Part shown: positions 1 through 36,000 of the stretch, in pieces
Layout: each line of letters begins with the position of its first letter
How positions within the stretch are numbered: position 1 is the stretch's first letter
DNA from: an uncultured Spirochaetota bacterium
GTDB lineage: Bacteria; Spirochaetota; Brevinematia; Brevinematales; JAOACQ01
Direction: 5' to 3'
Assembly (NCBI GenBank): GCA_963783575.1
Contig: CAWAOD010000005.1
Span: 192,001-256,000, forward strand
Length of the DNA: 64,000 bases
Made by a program: the position numbers

Positions 1-3000
1 GCGATTTGGCTGTATTGATATCGTTTACGCCATTAATAAGATTCTTGAGCTCGCTTTCGCGGTTTGTCCAGATGATATCACTTTCACCGCACTGCAAATC
101 ATTTCTGGCAAGCAAAGTCGGGGAATAATTGTATCCCAGAATGTATCGGGATGTCACCATACCAGTGTCATATTCTGTTGATTGTCCTTTGGGGAGAGTT
201 GTTACTGAATAAGGACCACCCCAGGACTTTAACAAAATGAAATTCTTGTATGACATGTCCACAAGACCGATCTCGCCGGTGTTTGCATTTACCAACATGT
301 ATGCGTTCATATAGGTTCCGGTGTTATCCAGCGAAATGTACTGGAAGAATTCGTCCAGTGATTCGGAAAATTCTTCAGCCAGGGCTGAACGCCAGAAGAT
401 GAATATGCCGTCAGTCTTAGTCTGGGTGTAGTTATATCTACTGGTTGTTTCATTGAACATCAGTCCCTTGTTGTTGAATCCGAAATCCGTTTGGGATCCG
501 ATCTGACCGGGACCGTAAGTGTTTACGCTCACCATGTCACCGTTGACATTGATAGTCATTGACATGGTCATAGAGAGATACCAGGCCCAGGTATTGTGTG
601 CCATAACTATGTCTCCATCGATCCGTTTAACGAAAGCTGAACACCTTAAAGGGTTCATGTTTCTCCTTTTCGTCCACGGGGACGCCTTCTTAGTGGCTTT
701 CGTAGTACTTAAAGAAGCGGATACGGACGGTAAATTATAGAAAACATCCCAGAAATCCATTACCGCATTTATGAAATAGACATCCATGAACGTGAGGCTT
801 GTACCATAACCGGTCTGCAATTCAGCAGCTTTGAAGTATTTGGAATCCGGCAGGAACCTGCCTGAAAAATCCAGATTCTCGGGATGTACACGTGTGGCTC
901 CGTGATAGATGCCCAGCATTCGGAATAAGAGCCGTTTGAGACCATACACCGCTTTGGGATTCGAACTTGTTTTCAGGTATTCTATGAAGTAATTGAAGTT
1001 CTGGTTCATAATGGAATTTGCTGCAGCAAGTTCATCACTGGAAGGACCTGGAGACCACTGGTTGTCTCGAGCTGAGGCAATCGTGCTTCCTTGCAAGTGT
1101 CCCTGGATGAAACCTGCCTGATACTCTGCTTTGAACACATTGTCATCCCTGGAGACCACAGTCAGGTTGGCGATGTTGTTAACCATCTCCAGGACACCCG
1201 ATGCCCCGGGATTCAAGACATAGTTGACAAGACCGGACTTGTTTGGTACATTGATTACATTTTCAAGTTGTAAAGTCGTGTCTGACTTTCCTTCTTTATT
1301 ATCGCTGCCTACCGTCAGCGAACAACTGAAAATTAAGCTTAAAATTACTAAGCTTAAAACCGTCAAAAAAACTTTTCTCATTTTATCCTCCATAAATTTA
1401 TTGTAAAAAGGCTGTGTGGACCTTTCGTTACCTCTGTATCAACCGATAAATTTTTGGTTTATCGATATACAATTTGTTTTTATGGTTTCTTGGTTTACTA
1501 ATAGGAAAAATTATAATCAGAAGCTGGTAAAAACTCAAAAAAAGATGAGATAGGAAGATTCGACGAAACAACTTGCGTAAATGAAAATTTGTGGCTACAA
1601 TATTTCAGTTCGGAGAAACATTCTTTAAGCGTTCGGTCCAGACTGGTCCTTTTCAGAAACACCGGTGCAGGATAAATTCAGCTGGTATTGCTAAAGTTCT
1701 GCACCACTAAACATACTTTGATATTTTTCAAATAATTTCCTGATGTTATTCCGAGCATTCCTGAAGTAGACAATCAAAGAAGCAGTATCAACTCCCATTG
1801 ACTTTGGAGGATATTAAATATAAAATTTCTTATGGAAAATAAAATGATAAATAATCGTTATGAGATTGTCAGGCAGATCGATGAAGGGGGGATATCGAAG
1901 GTATACCTGGCGAGGGATATTGAGACGAAGGGCGAGGTAGTGGTCAGGACGCTGAAGAAGGAAATAATATCGAGCAGGATAGAAGATATCATTCGTTTCC
2001 GGAATGAAGCTGCGATATTATCCCGGCTGGACCATCCGAATATTGTCAAGTTATATGAAACCGCTGAATTTGAAGGACAGAATTATATAGTAATGGAGTA
2101 TATTCCCGGGGAAAGTTTGTATAAAATCATTAAAAGCGGGAAAAAGTTTCTGGAGAGAGAAATAATAGAAATGACGATCCAGATATGCAGTTCTCTGGAT
2201 TATATACACCCGATGAGCATAATTCATAGGGATTTGAAGCCTGGCAATATTATGGTGCATACCGATATGAAAGGTGAGCTTCATATTAAAACTATTGATT
2301 TTGGCCTGGCATTTTTAAAGGAATACTCCTCAATAAAAGGCATAGAAGATATAGCCGGGACCTTCTGTTACATGCCGCCGGAACAGTTCGGGGTCATCAG
2401 TGGAGGCGTGGACGAGAGGAGCGACCTATACTCGCTGGGGATTATCTTATACCAGCTGTTAACGGGGGTCCTGCCTTTTGAGGGAGAAACCCCGGGCTCT
2501 ATTATCCACCGGCAGATCGCGATGATTCCGGAGACCCCTTCTTATTATAATAAATCCATATCGGAAACTCTTGATAAAATTGTATTGAAGCTCCTGGAGA
2601 AGGAGCCGGACAGGCGTTACCAATCGGCGAAAGGCCTGCTCTTCGACCTGGAAAAGTACAAAAAAGGGGAGCGGAATTTCCATCCGGGCATACATGACAA
2701 GCATATAAAATTGACATTTAAAACGGGGCTGATATCGCGGGAGGAAGAATTCAGCGCCATAAAGGAATTATACGATAAAGCCCGGAAAGGTGAGGGGAGT
2801 GTCTGTTTTATCAGCGGGGAAGCGGGGAAAGGTAAGACCAGGCTGGCTGAAGAGTTGAGGAGCCATGTCTATACTGAAGGCGGCGTTTTTATAGATGGGA
2901 AATGCTTTGCCGGGAAGAGCAAGACGCCATACGGTCCATTTAAGGACGCCCTCAACATTTATTTAAAGATATACCAGGGTTATCAGGAAGAAAAAAAGCA

Positions 3001-33000: not shown

Positions 33001-36000
33001 ACTGTTGATGAGGTCTGGTGGTATTATCTCGGTACTCCGGTGTTGACCGAAACAGATTTCAAATGGTGTTTGCCACAAAAGCACTTATGGGCTCCCGATT
33101 GTTACCAGAATCCTCATAATGGTATCTATTATCTGTTTGTACCCGCAATGGACTCAAACGGAGTGTCGAGAATAGGTATTGCTACAAACAACAACCCCTT
33201 GACCCATTTTACAGCTCTTCCGAATTACCTCCAGGGTATAGAAGGCTATGCCAGCGATCCGGGAATATTCTATGACTATTATAGCGCCAGCGACTACATA
33301 GTTTATAATACCGGCCCTGCTCCCTATGGAACAATTGCCATGGCAGTATTAAGCCTGGATTATCAAAGCGCAACTCAGATTGAATTAACGATAAACGGTG
33401 CTCCTGACACATACATGGAAGGCCCGGCACTGGGTTCATTCGTTGGTAATACCTACTGTTTATACTTCGCAATGTATACCAATGCCCCCTTCAACAAAGA
33501 ATGTATAGCCTATGCGACGGCCGACAAAGTCACAGGCCCCTATACCTATCAAGGTGTGATCATGGATCCGAATGCCAAAGAAGGGTCCATTCAGGCCTCC
33601 ATTATGTGGTGGAACAATCACTGGTCCTTCTACTATCATGATAATCAGGGCTCAAGCCCCGGATACAACAGGAAAGTATGCGCCGAATATCTGACCATTA
33701 ATCCCGATGGCACAATTCCAAAAATTTACAGAACAACATTAGGGCTTACAAATTAAGCTCTTATAACCAAATAAATATGCGGCTCTTGCGGTAATGCAAG
33801 CGCCGCTTTTTTAAGATCTTTAAACAGGGAATAATGATAACATAGTCTGGCATGTCGGCTAAAAAAGTCAATAAATAACCCTTTCAGCCGCTGCCTATCA
33901 CCTGCCAAATGCTGGCAGGGACATAAAAAAACCATAAAGTACGGATTGATATACGCCGATCCTTTTATAAGCAAGCGTATGAATCCTATGCAATAATGGC
34001 CAATTTTCACATTTCATCTGCTATAAATTGGACAGCGGTTATTACACCAGGCTGCAATCAAAAATTTGATACTGGTATGGACTTTAGCTATACGCTTTTC
34101 TAAATGGCCGTGTACCTTTTTTTATATTTTCTTAAGAAAAATAAATAGCTGGTATTAAGAATGAATGACATTGATTATAATAATTATTTTCCCGGATTAA
34201 ATAGCCTTTTTCTTGTATATGATGAATTGGACAGTTTGATAAATACTTATCATAATGGAACCGGTTTGAATTGCAGCTCCGGGTGTGATAAATGCTGCTT
34301 GAAACCCCAGGAAAATATAGAAGCGTCGGTTTATGAACTTTTACCGTTAGGGATTCATCTATGGCGGAACGGTAAAGCTGATGATATTTTGAAGTCTATA
34401 GATGGTGATAATAATGAATTCTGCTCTTTATACAATCCTTCTCCTGGAAATGAAAAAGGCGGCTGCCGGTATTATTGTTTCAGGCCGCTGGTTTGCAGGC
34501 TATTCGGGATATACGGTTTTTATAATAAATTCGGTGTCCTGAAAACCTCTATCTGTAAATATATTAAACCTGACAATAATGTAAATTCCTTATGTAATAA
34601 AATTGAAAACTTCCCTCCCGTCAATACATATTTTTATCAAAAAATATCATCCCTTAATCCCTATCTAACGGCTAATATGTATCCAATTAACCAGGCAATA
34701 AAGCAGGCAATTGAAAAAACATGGATTTTTAACCGCCTGACTTCTCAAAACAGGAATGAAATATTAACGACAATTTAAGATTATAATTTTATTATTCGGA
34801 TGCACAACATTATAATATTGGATAAGATGAGACTAAACTAGGCATTTCTTATTGAGATATAATAAATTATAATACAATATGTTAATATTTAAAATATATA
34901 ATCAGATATAATATGATATATAACAGTATAAATATTTTAAATGTTAAATTAATAGGGATTAATCATTAATTTTATCAATATAATATTTGCGTTTTTTTAT
35001 TTTTCATAGTAATCTTTATCAGGGTGGGATTTATCTTTTTCTCTTCTATTCCCGGAATATTTTTTAAACAGTTGTGATGTCTGTCGAATATCTGTCCTTA
35101 ATAGTGTTTTATCAAGAAAGAAGGTTTTTATTGATAAAATTTTTATAGGAGGATCATAGATATGAACAGGATTGTTTTTGCGGCTGTTTTTCTGGCTTAT
35201 ATTATCTCTGGATGCAGTACAACACCTTCATCAGCATCAAATTCTTCCAGTTCGAGCCAGAATATCTCAAGCTCCGCAAATTCGAGTAGTGCAAATTCGA
35301 GTAGTGCGAATTCTAGCACAGCATCTTCAATCTCGGGGGCTGGCTTTACGGTGGCTTTCATTACAAACAATGGAAGCAGTGTTACAAACCTGACGGTTGC
35401 CAGTAATTCGCTATTGGCGGAACCGGTTCCGCCGTTATATTACTGCCATGCCCTCCAGGGATGGTATAAAGACTCCGCTTTCACCACCACCTGGAATTTT
35501 ACAAGCGATACCGTTATATCCAACGTCACAATTTACGCGAAATGGCTTGTTTCAACACCGGGCCTTGCTTTCACATCTATCAATAACATGAACGCATACA
35601 GCGTTTCATGCGGAACAGCGGGCATTAGTAATTCAATTATCGTTCCGGCATACTGGGCGGGCAGAAAAGTAATGGCGATTGAATCAGTGGGATTTACAAA
35701 CGATATGACGCTTAATAACATTACTCTACCGGACAATATTACGGATATCGGCAGTTACGCTTTTCAAAACTGCTCCAATCTGGCCGGCATCACAATTCCT
35801 GCCGGGGTTACCTATCTTGAAGATTACACTTTCTATAACTGTGTAAGTTTAGCCTATGTTTCAAATTTATCATGGGTAGACTCCATAGGAACATCTGCTT
35901 TTAACGGATGCGGAAATTTAACAAATGTGATACTTTCCGGCACTCTGACGAATATCGGTAATAGCGCCTTCAGCGGATGCAGCAGTCTTACCAATATAAC

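Follow-up and report, generated by a model that had tools for sequence, protein, structure and literature searches.

The window analysed here is a 64,000-nt stretch of contig CAWAOD010000005.1 (C5; positions 192,001-256,000 of the forward strand, contig position 192,001 being window position 1) from an uncultured Spirochaetota bacterium (GCA_963783575.1; Brevinematia; Brevinematales; JAOACQ01). It contains two giant regulator genes interspersed with glycoside hydrolase genes and repeated promoter-like modules (Table 1). The GH43-CBM6-RicinB, GH8 and GH43 genes described in the genome-wide survey's note were recovered by Pfam, and lipoboxes are present in all seven GH/CBM proteins checked. The nearest solved structures to the GH43 protein encoded at 9822 are xylosidases and arabinofuranosidases (8hcj, 4nov, 3c7e), and that to the GH8 protein is the endoglucanase CelA of C. 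thermocellum (1cem/1kwf); the name 'arabinoxylan locus' given in that note is thus too narrow. Two of the four GH43-CBM6-RicinB-type genes, a count that takes in the GH43-less gene at 7929-8972, are frameshifted. The leader of the latter gene, approximately 390 nt long, is common to P2 and P5.

Table 1. Features of the regulator and hydrolase locus (window coordinates)
Feature	Position	Strand	Evidence
Regulator A1, kinase-like/STAND/TPR/GAF/sigma-54 activator; three ORFs (1832-4393, 4411-6582, 6573-7244)	1832..7244	+	Pfam, tblastn
Module P1 (A1): dyads GACGTTTAAACGTC (7340-7353) and AGACGGTTTTCCGTC (7360-7375), conserved core, TGGCATACGATTTGC (7511-7525)	7340..7540	+	
CBM6-RicinB lipoprotein without GH43 domain	7929..8972	+	Pfam; lipobox LSGC
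Module P2 (A1): TGGCATACGGTTTGC (9367-9381)	9199..9395	+	
GH43-CBM6-RicinB lipoprotein, intact	9822..11783	+	Pfam; lipobox
Module P3 (A1): TGGCATACGATTTGC (12115-12129)	11946..12145	+	
Frameshifted copy of IS110-N-terminus-like small ORF	12345..12696	+	tblastn to ORF at 30693: 89% (aa 1-36), 67% (aa 13-117)
GH8 lipoprotein with weak RicinB-like tail	12720..14924	+	Pfam; lipobox MSGC
Alpha/beta hydrolase, 99% duplicate of 16840-17616	15128..15889	+	Pfam; repeat comparison
Remnant, last ~15 codons of A1-type regulator (ending KRTTLNDKIKFLNIK, stop)	15988..16049	+	92% to 7195-7256; translation
Regulator A2, intact, 1802 aa	17691..23099	+	Pfam, motif reading
Module P4 (A2): dyads TTGTCATAGACAA (23138-23150) and AGACAAATTTTTGTCT (23167-23182); TGGCATATAGTTTGC (23314-23328)	23138..23345	+	
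GH43-CBM6, ATG 23478, RBS AAAGGAGG; RicinB part in another frame (25099-25455)	23478..25455	+	Frameshift near 25171-25178
Remnant, A2-type regulator 3' end	25572..25837	+	tblastn, 97% over last 62 aa; translation
Module P5 (A2): TGGCATATAGTTTGC (26051-26065)	25875..26080	+	
DDE transposase (DDE_Tnp_1_6, DUF772), in leader between P5 and its GH43 gene	26349..27761	-	Pfam
GH43 (28097-29338) and CBM6-RicinB (29298-30047), one gene, frameshift near 29302	28097..30047	+	Pfam
Remnant, A2-type regulator 3' end, 53-80% identity	30165..30433	+	tblastn; translation
Module P6 (A2): dyad AGACAAAATTTTGTCT (30500-30515); TGGCATATGGTTTGC (30648-30662)	30471..30680	+	
117-aa ORF homologous to first ~100 residues of IS110-family transposases	30693..31046	+	Sequence comparison
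Two GH43 lipoprotein genes (31187-32329, 32653-33756)	31187..33756	+	Pfam; lipoboxes

Regulator A2 has every domain that the survey claimed for it, in the order Pkinase, AAA_16, TPR_12, GAF, Sigma54_activat, AAA_lid_14 and HTH_8, the last at the C-terminus, and no transmembrane segment was predicted in it. The motifs of its enhancer-binding protein (EBP) module are intact (Walker A GETGTGKE, loop GAFTDA, Walker B DE and the FREDLYYR arginine), and the STAND Walker A reads GEAGKGKT. According to the legend of Figure 3 in PMC3162934, GAFTDA is also the form of the sigma-54-contacting loop in FlgR of Campylobacter, an experimentally validated activator. FlgR itself, a response regulator that governs flagellar genes, is otherwise unrelated to the giants. 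At the beta3 lysine position of the kinase-like domain A2 has R35; as reported in the survey, all copies carry arginine there, and its occurrence throughout the spirochaete clade makes a nucleotide-binding or regulatory pseudokinase more likely than an active kinase.

The second copy in the window, A1, was likewise recovered: its three ORFs are 98.8, 89 and 68% identical to A2, in a mosaic that ranges from 100% down to 67%. Its frame is broken by a 1-nt deletion at 4387 and by a second shift near 6530-6582, neither of them in a homopolymer. The six paralogues counted by the survey, however, reduce to four loci, because the contig ends dovetail: the last 3905 nt of C5 overlap the first 3903 nt of contig C14 (99.57% identical), and the last 4121 nt of C15 overlap the first 4121 nt of C3 (99.61%). 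We reject the contig-end copies as distinct paralogues; the earlier comparison had paired the C14 start with the C15 end and the C5 end with the C3 start, which are the wrong pairs. The statement that five of six copies are interrupted is similarly unsafe. One locus is intact and another is broken in mid-contig; each contig-end locus exists in two versions whose indels do not agree, so these indels are unreliable. Those in mid-contig are probably real, since IS110 copies located there differ mostly by substitutions. The rpoN gene listed by the survey is present and complete (AID, CBD, DBD).

Six modules in the window, family A, combine UAS-like dyads at approximately -130 to -180 with TGGCAT-N5-TTGC and precede the GH43/CBM6/RicinB, GH8 and GH43 lipoprotein genes. 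The five sites already on record (P1-P4 and P6) stand, but the count does not: P5 is the module of the GH43 gene at 28097, from which a DDE transposase now separates it, and its leader resumes past the insertion at 27844-28098 with 92% identity to the P1 leader. All six -24/-12 elements are intact, with TGGCA and TTGC invariant and the 5-nt spacer variable. In agreement with the survey, a genome-wide search confined the conserved block to this locus; much of the near-identity among its copies, on the other hand, reflects recent tandem duplication of a regulator-module-GH43 cassette. The strict -24/-12 pattern matches the genome 19 times, where base composition predicts about 6.7 matches. Of the four dyad patterns, A1 site 1 and A2 site 2 match nothing in the genome outside family-A modules, while the other two have five stray matches elsewhere between them; the second A1 dyad, as in P1, also scores as terminator-like.

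A further set of promoters, family B, had been overlooked. It comprises five copies of TGGAAT/TGGCAT-N5-TTGC with three TGTCAG repeats, a triple array found exclusively in these modules in a search of the genome. One of them, TTGGAATGCTATTTGCA, lies 166 nt ahead of the GH43 gene g03389 (C14:5712), upstream of which no site was supposed to exist. Two of the five stand before GH43 or GH43-like genes and a third before an IS110-N-like small ORF; the other two lead into glycosyltransferase/radical-SAM clusters. As these last are GT2/radical-SAM/NRPS-condensation clusters, the putative regulon would not consist of hemicellulases alone.

Across both families GG and GC are invariant at the correct spacing in 11/11 modules. 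This, together with the variable family-A spacer, argues against TGGCAT-N5-TTGC being incidental to some other repeated element, such as a mobile-element end tied to the IS110-like ORF. That ORF does begin 45-48 nt past the motif in two module families, and the modules, at about 225-250 nt, are close in length to the ~240-nt left end of the genome's IS110 element; yet this left end has no sequence similarity to any module, no modules were found at the intact IS110 copies, and every module lies after an EBP gene or ahead of genes of the same orientation. We consider such an origin very improbable. The small ORFs resemble, as previously noticed, the N-terminus of the genome's IS110-family ORFs (30-39% identity). 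The copy at 30693-31046 has lysine at the first catalytic Asp position and no Pfam match at E<=0.01, and a search for short homologues outside this genome returned none.

Wherever the 3' end of a regulator gene is readable, in all four cases, a module of upstream repeats and a -24/-12 element comes within ~10-100 nt downstream; at the C5/C14 and C15/C3 joins this module is of family B. The window holds three additional 3'-end remnants: two immediately precede P5 and P6, and past the third (15988-16049) comes an IS91-like fragment and no module. Because each regulator gene thus leads into an enhancer and sigma-54 promoter module, the giants most likely switch on the neighbouring genes for plant-fibre-degrading surface enzymes. 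Regulator subtype, HTH helix (A1, KRTTLNDKIK; A2, KRTTLNYKVK; B, KRTTLYYKMK) and upstream repeats fall into three matching classes, although a common history of duplication would by itself lead linked sequences to co-vary in this way, and n is only 3. The dyads of A1 and A2 lie at equal distance from -24 and differ in sequence.

Duplication could account for more than this co-variation. The repeated blocks might be by-products of recent segmental duplication and gene conversion, with genuine sigma-54 promoters served by a conventional EBP and giants that regulate something else or nothing. Regulator remnants and paralogous GH43 genes attest to cassette-wise duplication, stretches of A1 and A2 are 99-100% identical, and at least 13 other EBP genes in the genome, all conventional, are candidates for acting on these promoters. 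Moreover, the sole full-length relative with a readable neighbourhood (G006, 55% identity) has HD-GYP, HypC-radical-SAM and ABC-2 genes as neighbours, and neither a GH gene nor a clear -24/-12 site occurs near it. Against this, unrelated sequence flanks the family-B modules at C15:125411 and C15:142764 and the genes behind them are unrelated too, yet about 200 nt stay conserved, from the first TGTCAG repeat to just past -12; every readable regulator 3' end abuts a module; the HTH differs from class to class along with the upstream repeats; and Pfam annotation places no conventional EBP gene within window positions 1-37045. We therefore judge a pure by-product unlikely.

Decay presents a separate question. 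Frameshifts in the regulator of P1-P3 and in two GH43 genes, and the IS that separates one promoter from its gene, may have left part of the circuit dead. That the whole is a relic, its regulators and many targets being pseudogenes in this strain and no regulon working, seems quite unlikely: the two frameshifts of A1, the gene lacking a catalytic domain, the frameshifted small-ORF copy and the probable reality of the mid-contig indels speak for it, but A2, the GH43 gene at 9822, the GH8 gene and the GH43 genes at 31187 and 32653 are intact, as are all six -24/-12 elements, and overlapping contig ends disagree on the indels in the B regulators.

On balance, we think it probable that the locus consists of tandem, partly decayed cassettes in which each giant would activate its own class of module via sigma-54. 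A cassette would comprise a giant cytoplasmic one-component regulator, a ~200-nt regulatory module (a conserved core and the -24/-12 promoter, with two GTC/GAC dyads at ~-130 to -180) and genes for surface lipoprotein glycoside hydrolases. We infer that a cytoplasmic signal would act on the TPR/GAF part and that the STAND NTPase would drive oligomerization, enabling the AAA+ ring to remodel the sigma-54 holoenzyme at TGGCAT-N5-TTGC, while the C-terminal Fis-type HTH would bind the upstream dyads. The specificity classes would then be A1 (the broken regulator and P1-P3), A2 (the intact regulator and P4-P6) and B (the regulators at the two contig joins and five modules). Overall, the sequence features in the survey's note held up, and adjacency, co-variation, intact EBP motifs and rpoN support its sigma-54 proposal in silico; the copy number, the hemicellulase-only scope and with it part of the reading did not hold.

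Parts of this scheme have counterparts in known systems. NifA, NorR and FhlA are GAF-containing bacterial EBPs; like the giants, such proteins place GAF directly N-terminal to the sigma-54 AAA+ domain, end in a Fis-type HTH and follow a one-component logic with a target promoter adjoining the regulator gene. The giants differ in having ~1300 more N-terminal residues (kinase-like, STAND NTPase, TPR), the GAFTDA loop and glycoside hydrolase lipoprotein genes as putative targets. The STAND-TPR part is comparable to MalT, which controls the use of a sugar polymer, and other STAND/LAL activators, to AfsR with AfsK, and to M. tuberculosis PknK, which couples a Hanks kinase to a STAND-type module. 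In all of these, as in the giants, a TPR-type sensor arm comes after an AAA_16 P-loop NTPase that has Walker A/B, but the outputs of this group are sigma-70-type DNA binding (LuxR or SARP), whereas that of the giants is a second oligomerizing ATPase requiring sigma-54, and their kinase domain lacks the beta3 lysine. Bacteroides hybrid two-component systems, which adjoin polysaccharide utilisation loci, are also very large single-polypeptide sensor-regulators beside genes for glycan-degrading surface lipoproteins, which they control; these are not homologous to the giants, being membrane-bound with periplasmic sensing, AraC output and sigma-70 promoters.

The survey regarded the wiring as undescribed, which holds within the literature searched; the architecture itself is widespread. 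Pkinase, GAF and Sigma54_activat occur in every one of the 28 distant long matches tested, and AAA_16 at E<=1e-8 in 25 of them. These giants of other phyla equal the spirochaete regulator in domain order and length, but the scaffolds are only 25-32% identical and the EBP modules 32-41%, and they have lysine at beta3 (28/28) and mostly GAFTGA where the spirochaete clade has arginine and A2 has GAFTDA. Relatives with SpoIIE phosphatase, GGDEF, histidine kinase, AraC, LuxR or HD outputs share the kinase-STAND-TPR-GAF sensor and differ in the output domain; they are 42-50% identical over ~80% of the protein and, unlike the spirochaete giants, keep the beta3 lysine (VAVK in 4/4 shown). That relatives with other outputs resemble the spirochaete scaffold more closely (36-52%), and that the EBP module is closest to a Peripla_BP-type EBP (62%, GSFTDA), points to an independent fusion.

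The regulators of this genome occupy four loci. The genome-wide survey's note had counted six paralogues and, although a tblastn search with the intact A2 protein recovered every copy it listed, two pairs of contig ends dovetail at approximately 99.6% identity: the last 3905 nt of C5 (646284-650188) overlap C14:1-3903 end-to-start (99.57%), as do the last 4121 nt of C15 (234115-238235) with C3:1-4121 (99.61%). C5 runs on into C14, and C15 into C3. The pairs formerly taken as distinct contig-end copies, C14 versus C15 and C5 versus C3, are in fact true paralogue pairs (92-95%). 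Two regulators, A1 and A2, lie within the window, and the other two, B1 and B2, span the contig joins.

Features of the regulator and enzyme loci and the family-B promoter modules (positions refer to the window unless a contig is named)
Feature	Position	Strand	Content or context	Basis
Regulator A1	1832-7244	+	split into three ORFs	Pfam
A1 ORF 1	1832-4393	+	Pkinase, AAA_16	Pfam
A1 ORF 2	4411-6582	+	TPR, GAF, first part of Sigma54_activat	Pfam
A1 ORF 3	6573-7244	+	remaining AAA+ domain, lid, HTH_8	Pfam
CBM6-RicinB	7929-8972	+		ORF listing, Pfam
GH43-CBM6-RicinB	9822-11783	+	intact	Pfam
GH8	12720-14924	+		Pfam
Alpha/beta hydrolase pair	15128-15889 and 16840-17616	+	99% identical	Pfam
Regulator A2	17691-23099	+	intact, 1802 aa	ORF listing, Pfam
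GH43-CBM6 and RicinB part	23478-25178 and 25099-25455	+	RicinB part in another frame	Pfam
DDE transposase	26349-27761	-		Pfam
GH43 / CBM6-RicinB	28097-29338 and 29298-30047	+	frameshift-split	Pfam
117-aa ORF	30693-31046	+		ORF listing
Two GH43 genes	31187-32329 and 32653-33756	+		Pfam
Regulator B1	C5 end / C14:92-5531		contig join	
Regulator B2	C15:233242 to contig end / C3:1-4566		contig join	
B module	C14:5712		166 nt upstream of GH43-CBM6-RicinB gene	
B module	C14:8332		upstream of fragmentary GH43-like ORFs	
B module	C15:233072	-	upstream of small ORF	
B modules	C15:125411 and C15:142764		upstream of GT2 glycosyltransferases	

Not all interruptions of these genes deserve equal trust. In B1 and B2, the reading frame is broken by single-base indels that are not trustworthy: where two contigs cover one of these loci, each shows different indels, and all lie within approximately 3-4 kb of contig ends. 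Indeed, both overlaps are unusually rich in such indels (for C5/C14, 10 gap positions and 7 mismatches; for C15/C3, 6 gap positions and 10 mismatches), which marks the contig ends of this assembly as being of low quality. Because five mid-contig copies of an IS110-family element differ from one another mainly by substitutions, the mid-contig frameshifts in A1 (a 1-nt deletion at 4387 and a second shift near 6530-6582) and in two GH43 genes (near 25175 and 29302) are probably real. A1 and A2 form a mosaic in which 100%-identical stretches alternate with others of 67-90% identity, a pattern that suggests gene conversion. Separately, two contigs, C7 (48955 nt, GC 0.52; containing an EBP-like stretch with in-frame stops) and C17 (13132 nt, GC 0.49), lie far above the GC of 0.36-0.39 found in the others and may be contamination or foreign replicons; the contamination rating of the assembly is 4.9%.

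The ORF and Pfam analyses of A2 agree with the survey in joining a kinase-like domain, AAA_16, GAF and a sigma-54 module in one polypeptide. The Sigma54_activat domain (PF00158, E = 4e-67) carries Walker A (GETGTGKE), Walker B (GTLFFDEIG) and FREDLYYR motifs, with HTH_8 at residues 1762-1796 (Pfam), while its sigma-54-contacting loop reads GAFTDA, retaining the F and T of GAFTGA; one conventional enhancer-binding protein (EBP) of the same genome has this loop as well. In the Figure 3 legend of PMC3162934, the G5-to-D form is the loop variant of FlgR, listed there as a validated activator. The rpoN gene noted by the survey proved complete, encoding 456 aa with the AID, CBD and DBD domains. The AAA+ Walker motifs, sigma-54-contacting loop, HTH and genomic sigma-54 that mark an EBP are all present.

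The sensory portion combines two further modules, and the regulator has no transmembrane stretch. MalT and AfsR are STAND NTPase regulators, and A2 likewise pairs a P-loop NTPase of the AAA_16 type (E = 2e-27; Walker A GEAGKGKT, then LDDLQW) with a repeat sensor arm, here the TPR_12 region downstream; we infer ligand- and nucleotide-dependent oligomerisation of the STAND part. The kinase-like domain, a Pkinase match at E = 5e-54, can be aligned to PknB (E = 8e-50) and has the Hanks-type fold with HRDLKPGN, DFG and, as the equivalent of APE, PPE. It lacks the beta3 lysine and the GxGxxG loop of active members: Arg35 occupies the position of PknB Lys40, and the glycine loop reads DEGGIS, or GEGGIS in the B copies. 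That arginine replaces the lysine in every regulator copy, as the survey had remarked, is borne out by the alignment to PknB and by the motif VVVR or VVLR in all copies of the window and genome. Arginine is common to the seven clade members, namely the query and its closest sigma-54-type relatives (P0001-P0006), whereas lysine is found in 28/28 distant sigma-54-type giants and, as VAVK, in four scaffold relatives with other outputs. Since a Lys-to-Arg change at beta3 is classically kinase-inactivating, the domain is a probable pseudokinase. Judged by its motifs, then, the giant is a GAF-type bacterial EBP extended by a putative pseudokinase-STAND sensor.

Two families of compact modules accompany these regulators. 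Family A numbers six copies (P1-P6), all within the window, which upholds the earlier statement that the conserved promoter block, including a further copy, is restricted to this locus. A MAFFT alignment was the basis for judging conservation, as an ungapped anchored identity profile of the six modules is blurred by small indels; most columns of the core, from approximately -52 to +22, are invariant, including TGGCA and TTGC, while three of the five spacer positions between these blocks vary; the -12 GC falls at 7525 in P1, 9381 in P2, 12129 in P3, 23328 in P4 and 30662 in P6. Further upstream are two dyads, placed at the same distances from the promoter in the A1 (P1-P3) and A2 (P4-P6) subfamilies. 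Site 1 reads GACGTTTAAACGTC at approximately -171 to -158 in the former and TTTTGTCATAGACAAAA at approximately -178 to -162 in the latter; site 2, at approximately -148 to -133, reads AGACGGTTTTCCGTCT and AGACAAATTTTTGTCT, respectively, and its A1 version also matches a simple terminator pattern. Genome-wide, two of the four dyad patterns are confined to family-A modules, and the other two have five stray matches together. The GH43 gene at 28097 has P5 (26051) as its promoter, the shared leader being broken by the transposase and resuming at 27844. A sigma-70 scan of 7000-13000 gave 22 sites against 19.8 expected.

The leaders are long and belong to no known RNA family, as an Rfam scan of 1-36000 at gathering thresholds returned zero matches. 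Those of P1, P2 and P5 share an imperfect hairpin of approximately 65 nt (7743-7806, with copies at 9609-9738 and 27885-28014), for which folding of 7690-7810 gave an MFE of -17.7 kcal/mol (z = -2.9). Parts of the leader also match C13:144392, C13:147999, C3:147990 and 63052-63118, and the hairpin may represent either a small repeat or an element of a leader RNA.

Family B, with five copies in the genome, escaped the survey because its -24 element reads TGGAAT in three of them. The survey had found no site upstream of g03389, but the module at C14:5712 precedes precisely that GH43 gene. Conservation extends over approximately 200 nt, starting exactly at the TGTCAG repeats and stopping just past -12, and the two modules at C15:125411 and C15:142764 have unrelated flanks. 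The upstream array consists of three direct TGTCAG(A)TTTT repeats spaced by 19-20 nt, from approximately -170 to -125, and the triple array is confined, genome-wide, to these five modules. All six family-A and five family-B sites combine GG at -24 and GC at -12 in canonical spacing with a downstream gene in the same orientation; used as DNA queries, neither family found a match in the 11 other genomes of the taxonomic family. The GT2 genes that follow the two C15 modules belong to clusters with radical-SAM/SPASM, NRPS-condensation and ABC-2 genes. These clusters (C15:120001-152000) also hold B12-radical-SAM and PMT_2 genes, and the region resembles a locus for surface glycans or modified peptides under sigma-54 control.

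The arrangement of regulators and modules is consistent with a link between them. A module of its own class begins 10-100 nt past the end of each of the four regulator genes, and remnants of regulator 3' ends lie directly before P5 (25572-25837) and P6 (30165-30433), with a third at 15988-16049. Within the C-terminal HTH, the helix sequence is KRTTLNDKIK in A1, KRTTLNYKVK in A2 and KRTTLYYKMK in the B regulators, while two remnants of A2 type read KRTTMNYKVK and KRTILNYKVK. These helix classes parallel the three classes of upstream repeat, as would be expected of cognate regulator/enhancer pairs; joint duplication of linked sequences would also yield such co-variation, and just three classes are available for comparison. 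On balance, we lean towards the giants activating the sigma-54 modules beside their own genes, and the close-by modules, whose dyads lie at -130 to -180, lend in silico support to -24/-12 activation from upstream sites. The proposal that the giants drive a sigma-54 hemicellulase regulon thus gains from module adjacency and class co-variation, but its scope was too narrow, family B also preceding the GT2/radical-SAM clusters. Wiring in cis to compact enhancer-promoter modules before glycoside hydrolase lipoprotein genes is partly supported by these sequence data. A full-text literature search found nothing on this fusion protein or on sigma-54 control of GH43/GH8 genes. Taken as a whole, the sequence features of the earlier observation stand, while the regulator count and other important points required correction.

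Each of the seven GH/CBM proteins of the locus carries an N-terminal signal peptide with a lipobox cysteine. By sequence, the solved structures nearest to the intact GH43 protein are xylosidases/arabinofuranosidases, among them 3c7e, a GH43-CBM6 enzyme of B. subtilis, and the nearest to the GH8 protein is the C. thermocellum endoglucanase CelA; the locus is therefore better termed hemicellulase/beta-glucanase than strictly arabinoxylan. Between the two near-identical alpha/beta hydrolase genes, the stretch 15988-16374 contains a regulator remnant, then a 100-aa ORF with a weak match to an IS91 zinc-binding domain (E = 1.6e-4, below cut-off); it probably marks a former IS-mediated rearrangement. 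Two genes flank the locus (35162-37045 and 2-1393, minus strand), one for a BspA-type LRR protein that includes a Listeria-Bacteroides repeat, the other phospholipase-B-like.

Among the best 120 of 1571 matches in a word-indexed search, only six (P0001-P0006, 55-63% identity, with P0001-P0005 at 59-63%) have a sigma-54 domain, the remainder ending in SpoIIE, GGDEF, histidine-kinase, AraC, LuxR or HD outputs. A GAF+EBP query located sigma-54-type giants in 2/35 genomes of the order, 2/43 of the class and 2/401 in a sample of the phylum, with this genome counted each time; a third matching genome, G008, was set aside, its protein being a 941-aa Peripla_BP-EBP. A search of genome and metagenome contigs for related loci gave only generic kinase/scaffold relatives and no close sigma-54-type one. 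An exhaustive HMMER search with residues 1001-1802 found many proteins of 1600-1900 aa; as Pkinase, GAF and Sigma54_activat occur in all 28 long matches tested (AAA_16 at E<=1e-8 in 25), the kinase-STAND-GAF-sigma-54 architecture is widespread.

Across residues 1-560, the spirochaete scaffold shares 36-52% identity with 118 relatives that lack a sigma-54 output, a range that leaves out one 65.9% match taken as this genome's own fragment (P0011), and only 25-32% with 20 distant giants. Its EBP module, only 32-41% identical to those of distant giants, finds its nearest relative (62%) in the Peripla_BP-type EBPs of 938/941 aa, the 938-aa member being from the same bacterial family and having the loop GSFTDA. 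From these identity ranges, rather than from trees, the spirochaete clade looks like a separate fusion. The 938/941-aa proteins (L016, G006:C2 9075-11891, and L017, G008:C1 9966-12791, both minus strand) have a LacI-type periplasmic-binding-protein-like sugar-binding domain, and a -24/-12 site lies just downstream of each gene, before fumarase or radical-SAM genes. The full-length giant relative of G006 (L014, G006:C1 8068-9969, minus strand) is divergent from a GAF/HD-GYP gene; its neighbourhood revealed neither a GH gene nor a convincing -24/-12 site, with none in the intergenic region.

We offer tentatively, as a possibility we think rather doubtful in its entirety, a model in which the scaffold, in an event separate from the origin of the giants found in other phyla, took over its sigma-54 part from a local EBP with a sugar-binding domain, the kinase became a pseudokinase, and the regulator multiplied with its own module into three mutually orthogonal classes. 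A switch built of two ATPases would then control surface hemicellulases as well as the glycosyltransferase/radical-SAM clusters, with AAA+ ring assembly gated by oligomerisation of the STAND part. If the model is true, nature would have furnished a portable set of orthogonal sigma-54 switches. For the regulation of plant-fibre-degrading enzymes in spirochaetes, four regulators with eleven enhancer-promoter modules of approximately 200 nt, in three classes co-changing with the DNA-reading helix, make a readable test case, yielding direct and cheap predictions for binding and reporter assays. More generally, the system touches on the way in which STAND, GAF and kinase-like parts of a single polypeptide can control its AAA+ transcription motor. 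The family of such giants is large and unstudied, and arginine at beta3 in this clade, against lysine elsewhere, amounts to a natural experiment on the need for kinase activity.

A set of mutually related small ORFs comprises the 117-aa ORF at 30693, its copy at 12345-12696, which carries a frameshift, and an ORF of 93-115 aa that follows the B2 module. Their resemblance to the N-terminus of IS110 transposases, reported by the survey, is confirmed by homology to the first approximately 100 residues only of the genome's 336-aa IS110-family ORF. Unlike the transposase, they lack the full DEDD RuvC-like domain and the C-terminal domain, and the first catalytic Asp position is replaced (GIDIHK to AVKIEK or ISIGSS). 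Identity between the A and B versions is 45%, two of the three ORFs are open, and in P1, P2, P4 and P5 only the first approximately 50 nt are left. The small ORF has no Pfam match, and a search of 5.8 billion proteins for short homologues (64-205 aa) returned only the genome's own two copies; these ORFs may be relics or a fragment that has been domesticated. The modules were also considered as possible IS110 ends, a reading rejected because the IS110 left end shares only chance 8-10-mers with them. The IS110-family element itself measures approximately 1.3 kb and has at least five copies (C9:167662-168976, others on C11, C12, C14 and C16). IS110 elements have a bridge-RNA region, of which two similar stem motifs in the left end of approximately 240 nt, GGGGATAAACCCC and GAGGATAAACCTC, are reminiscent. 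Two of the copies have an 11-nt deletion in common.
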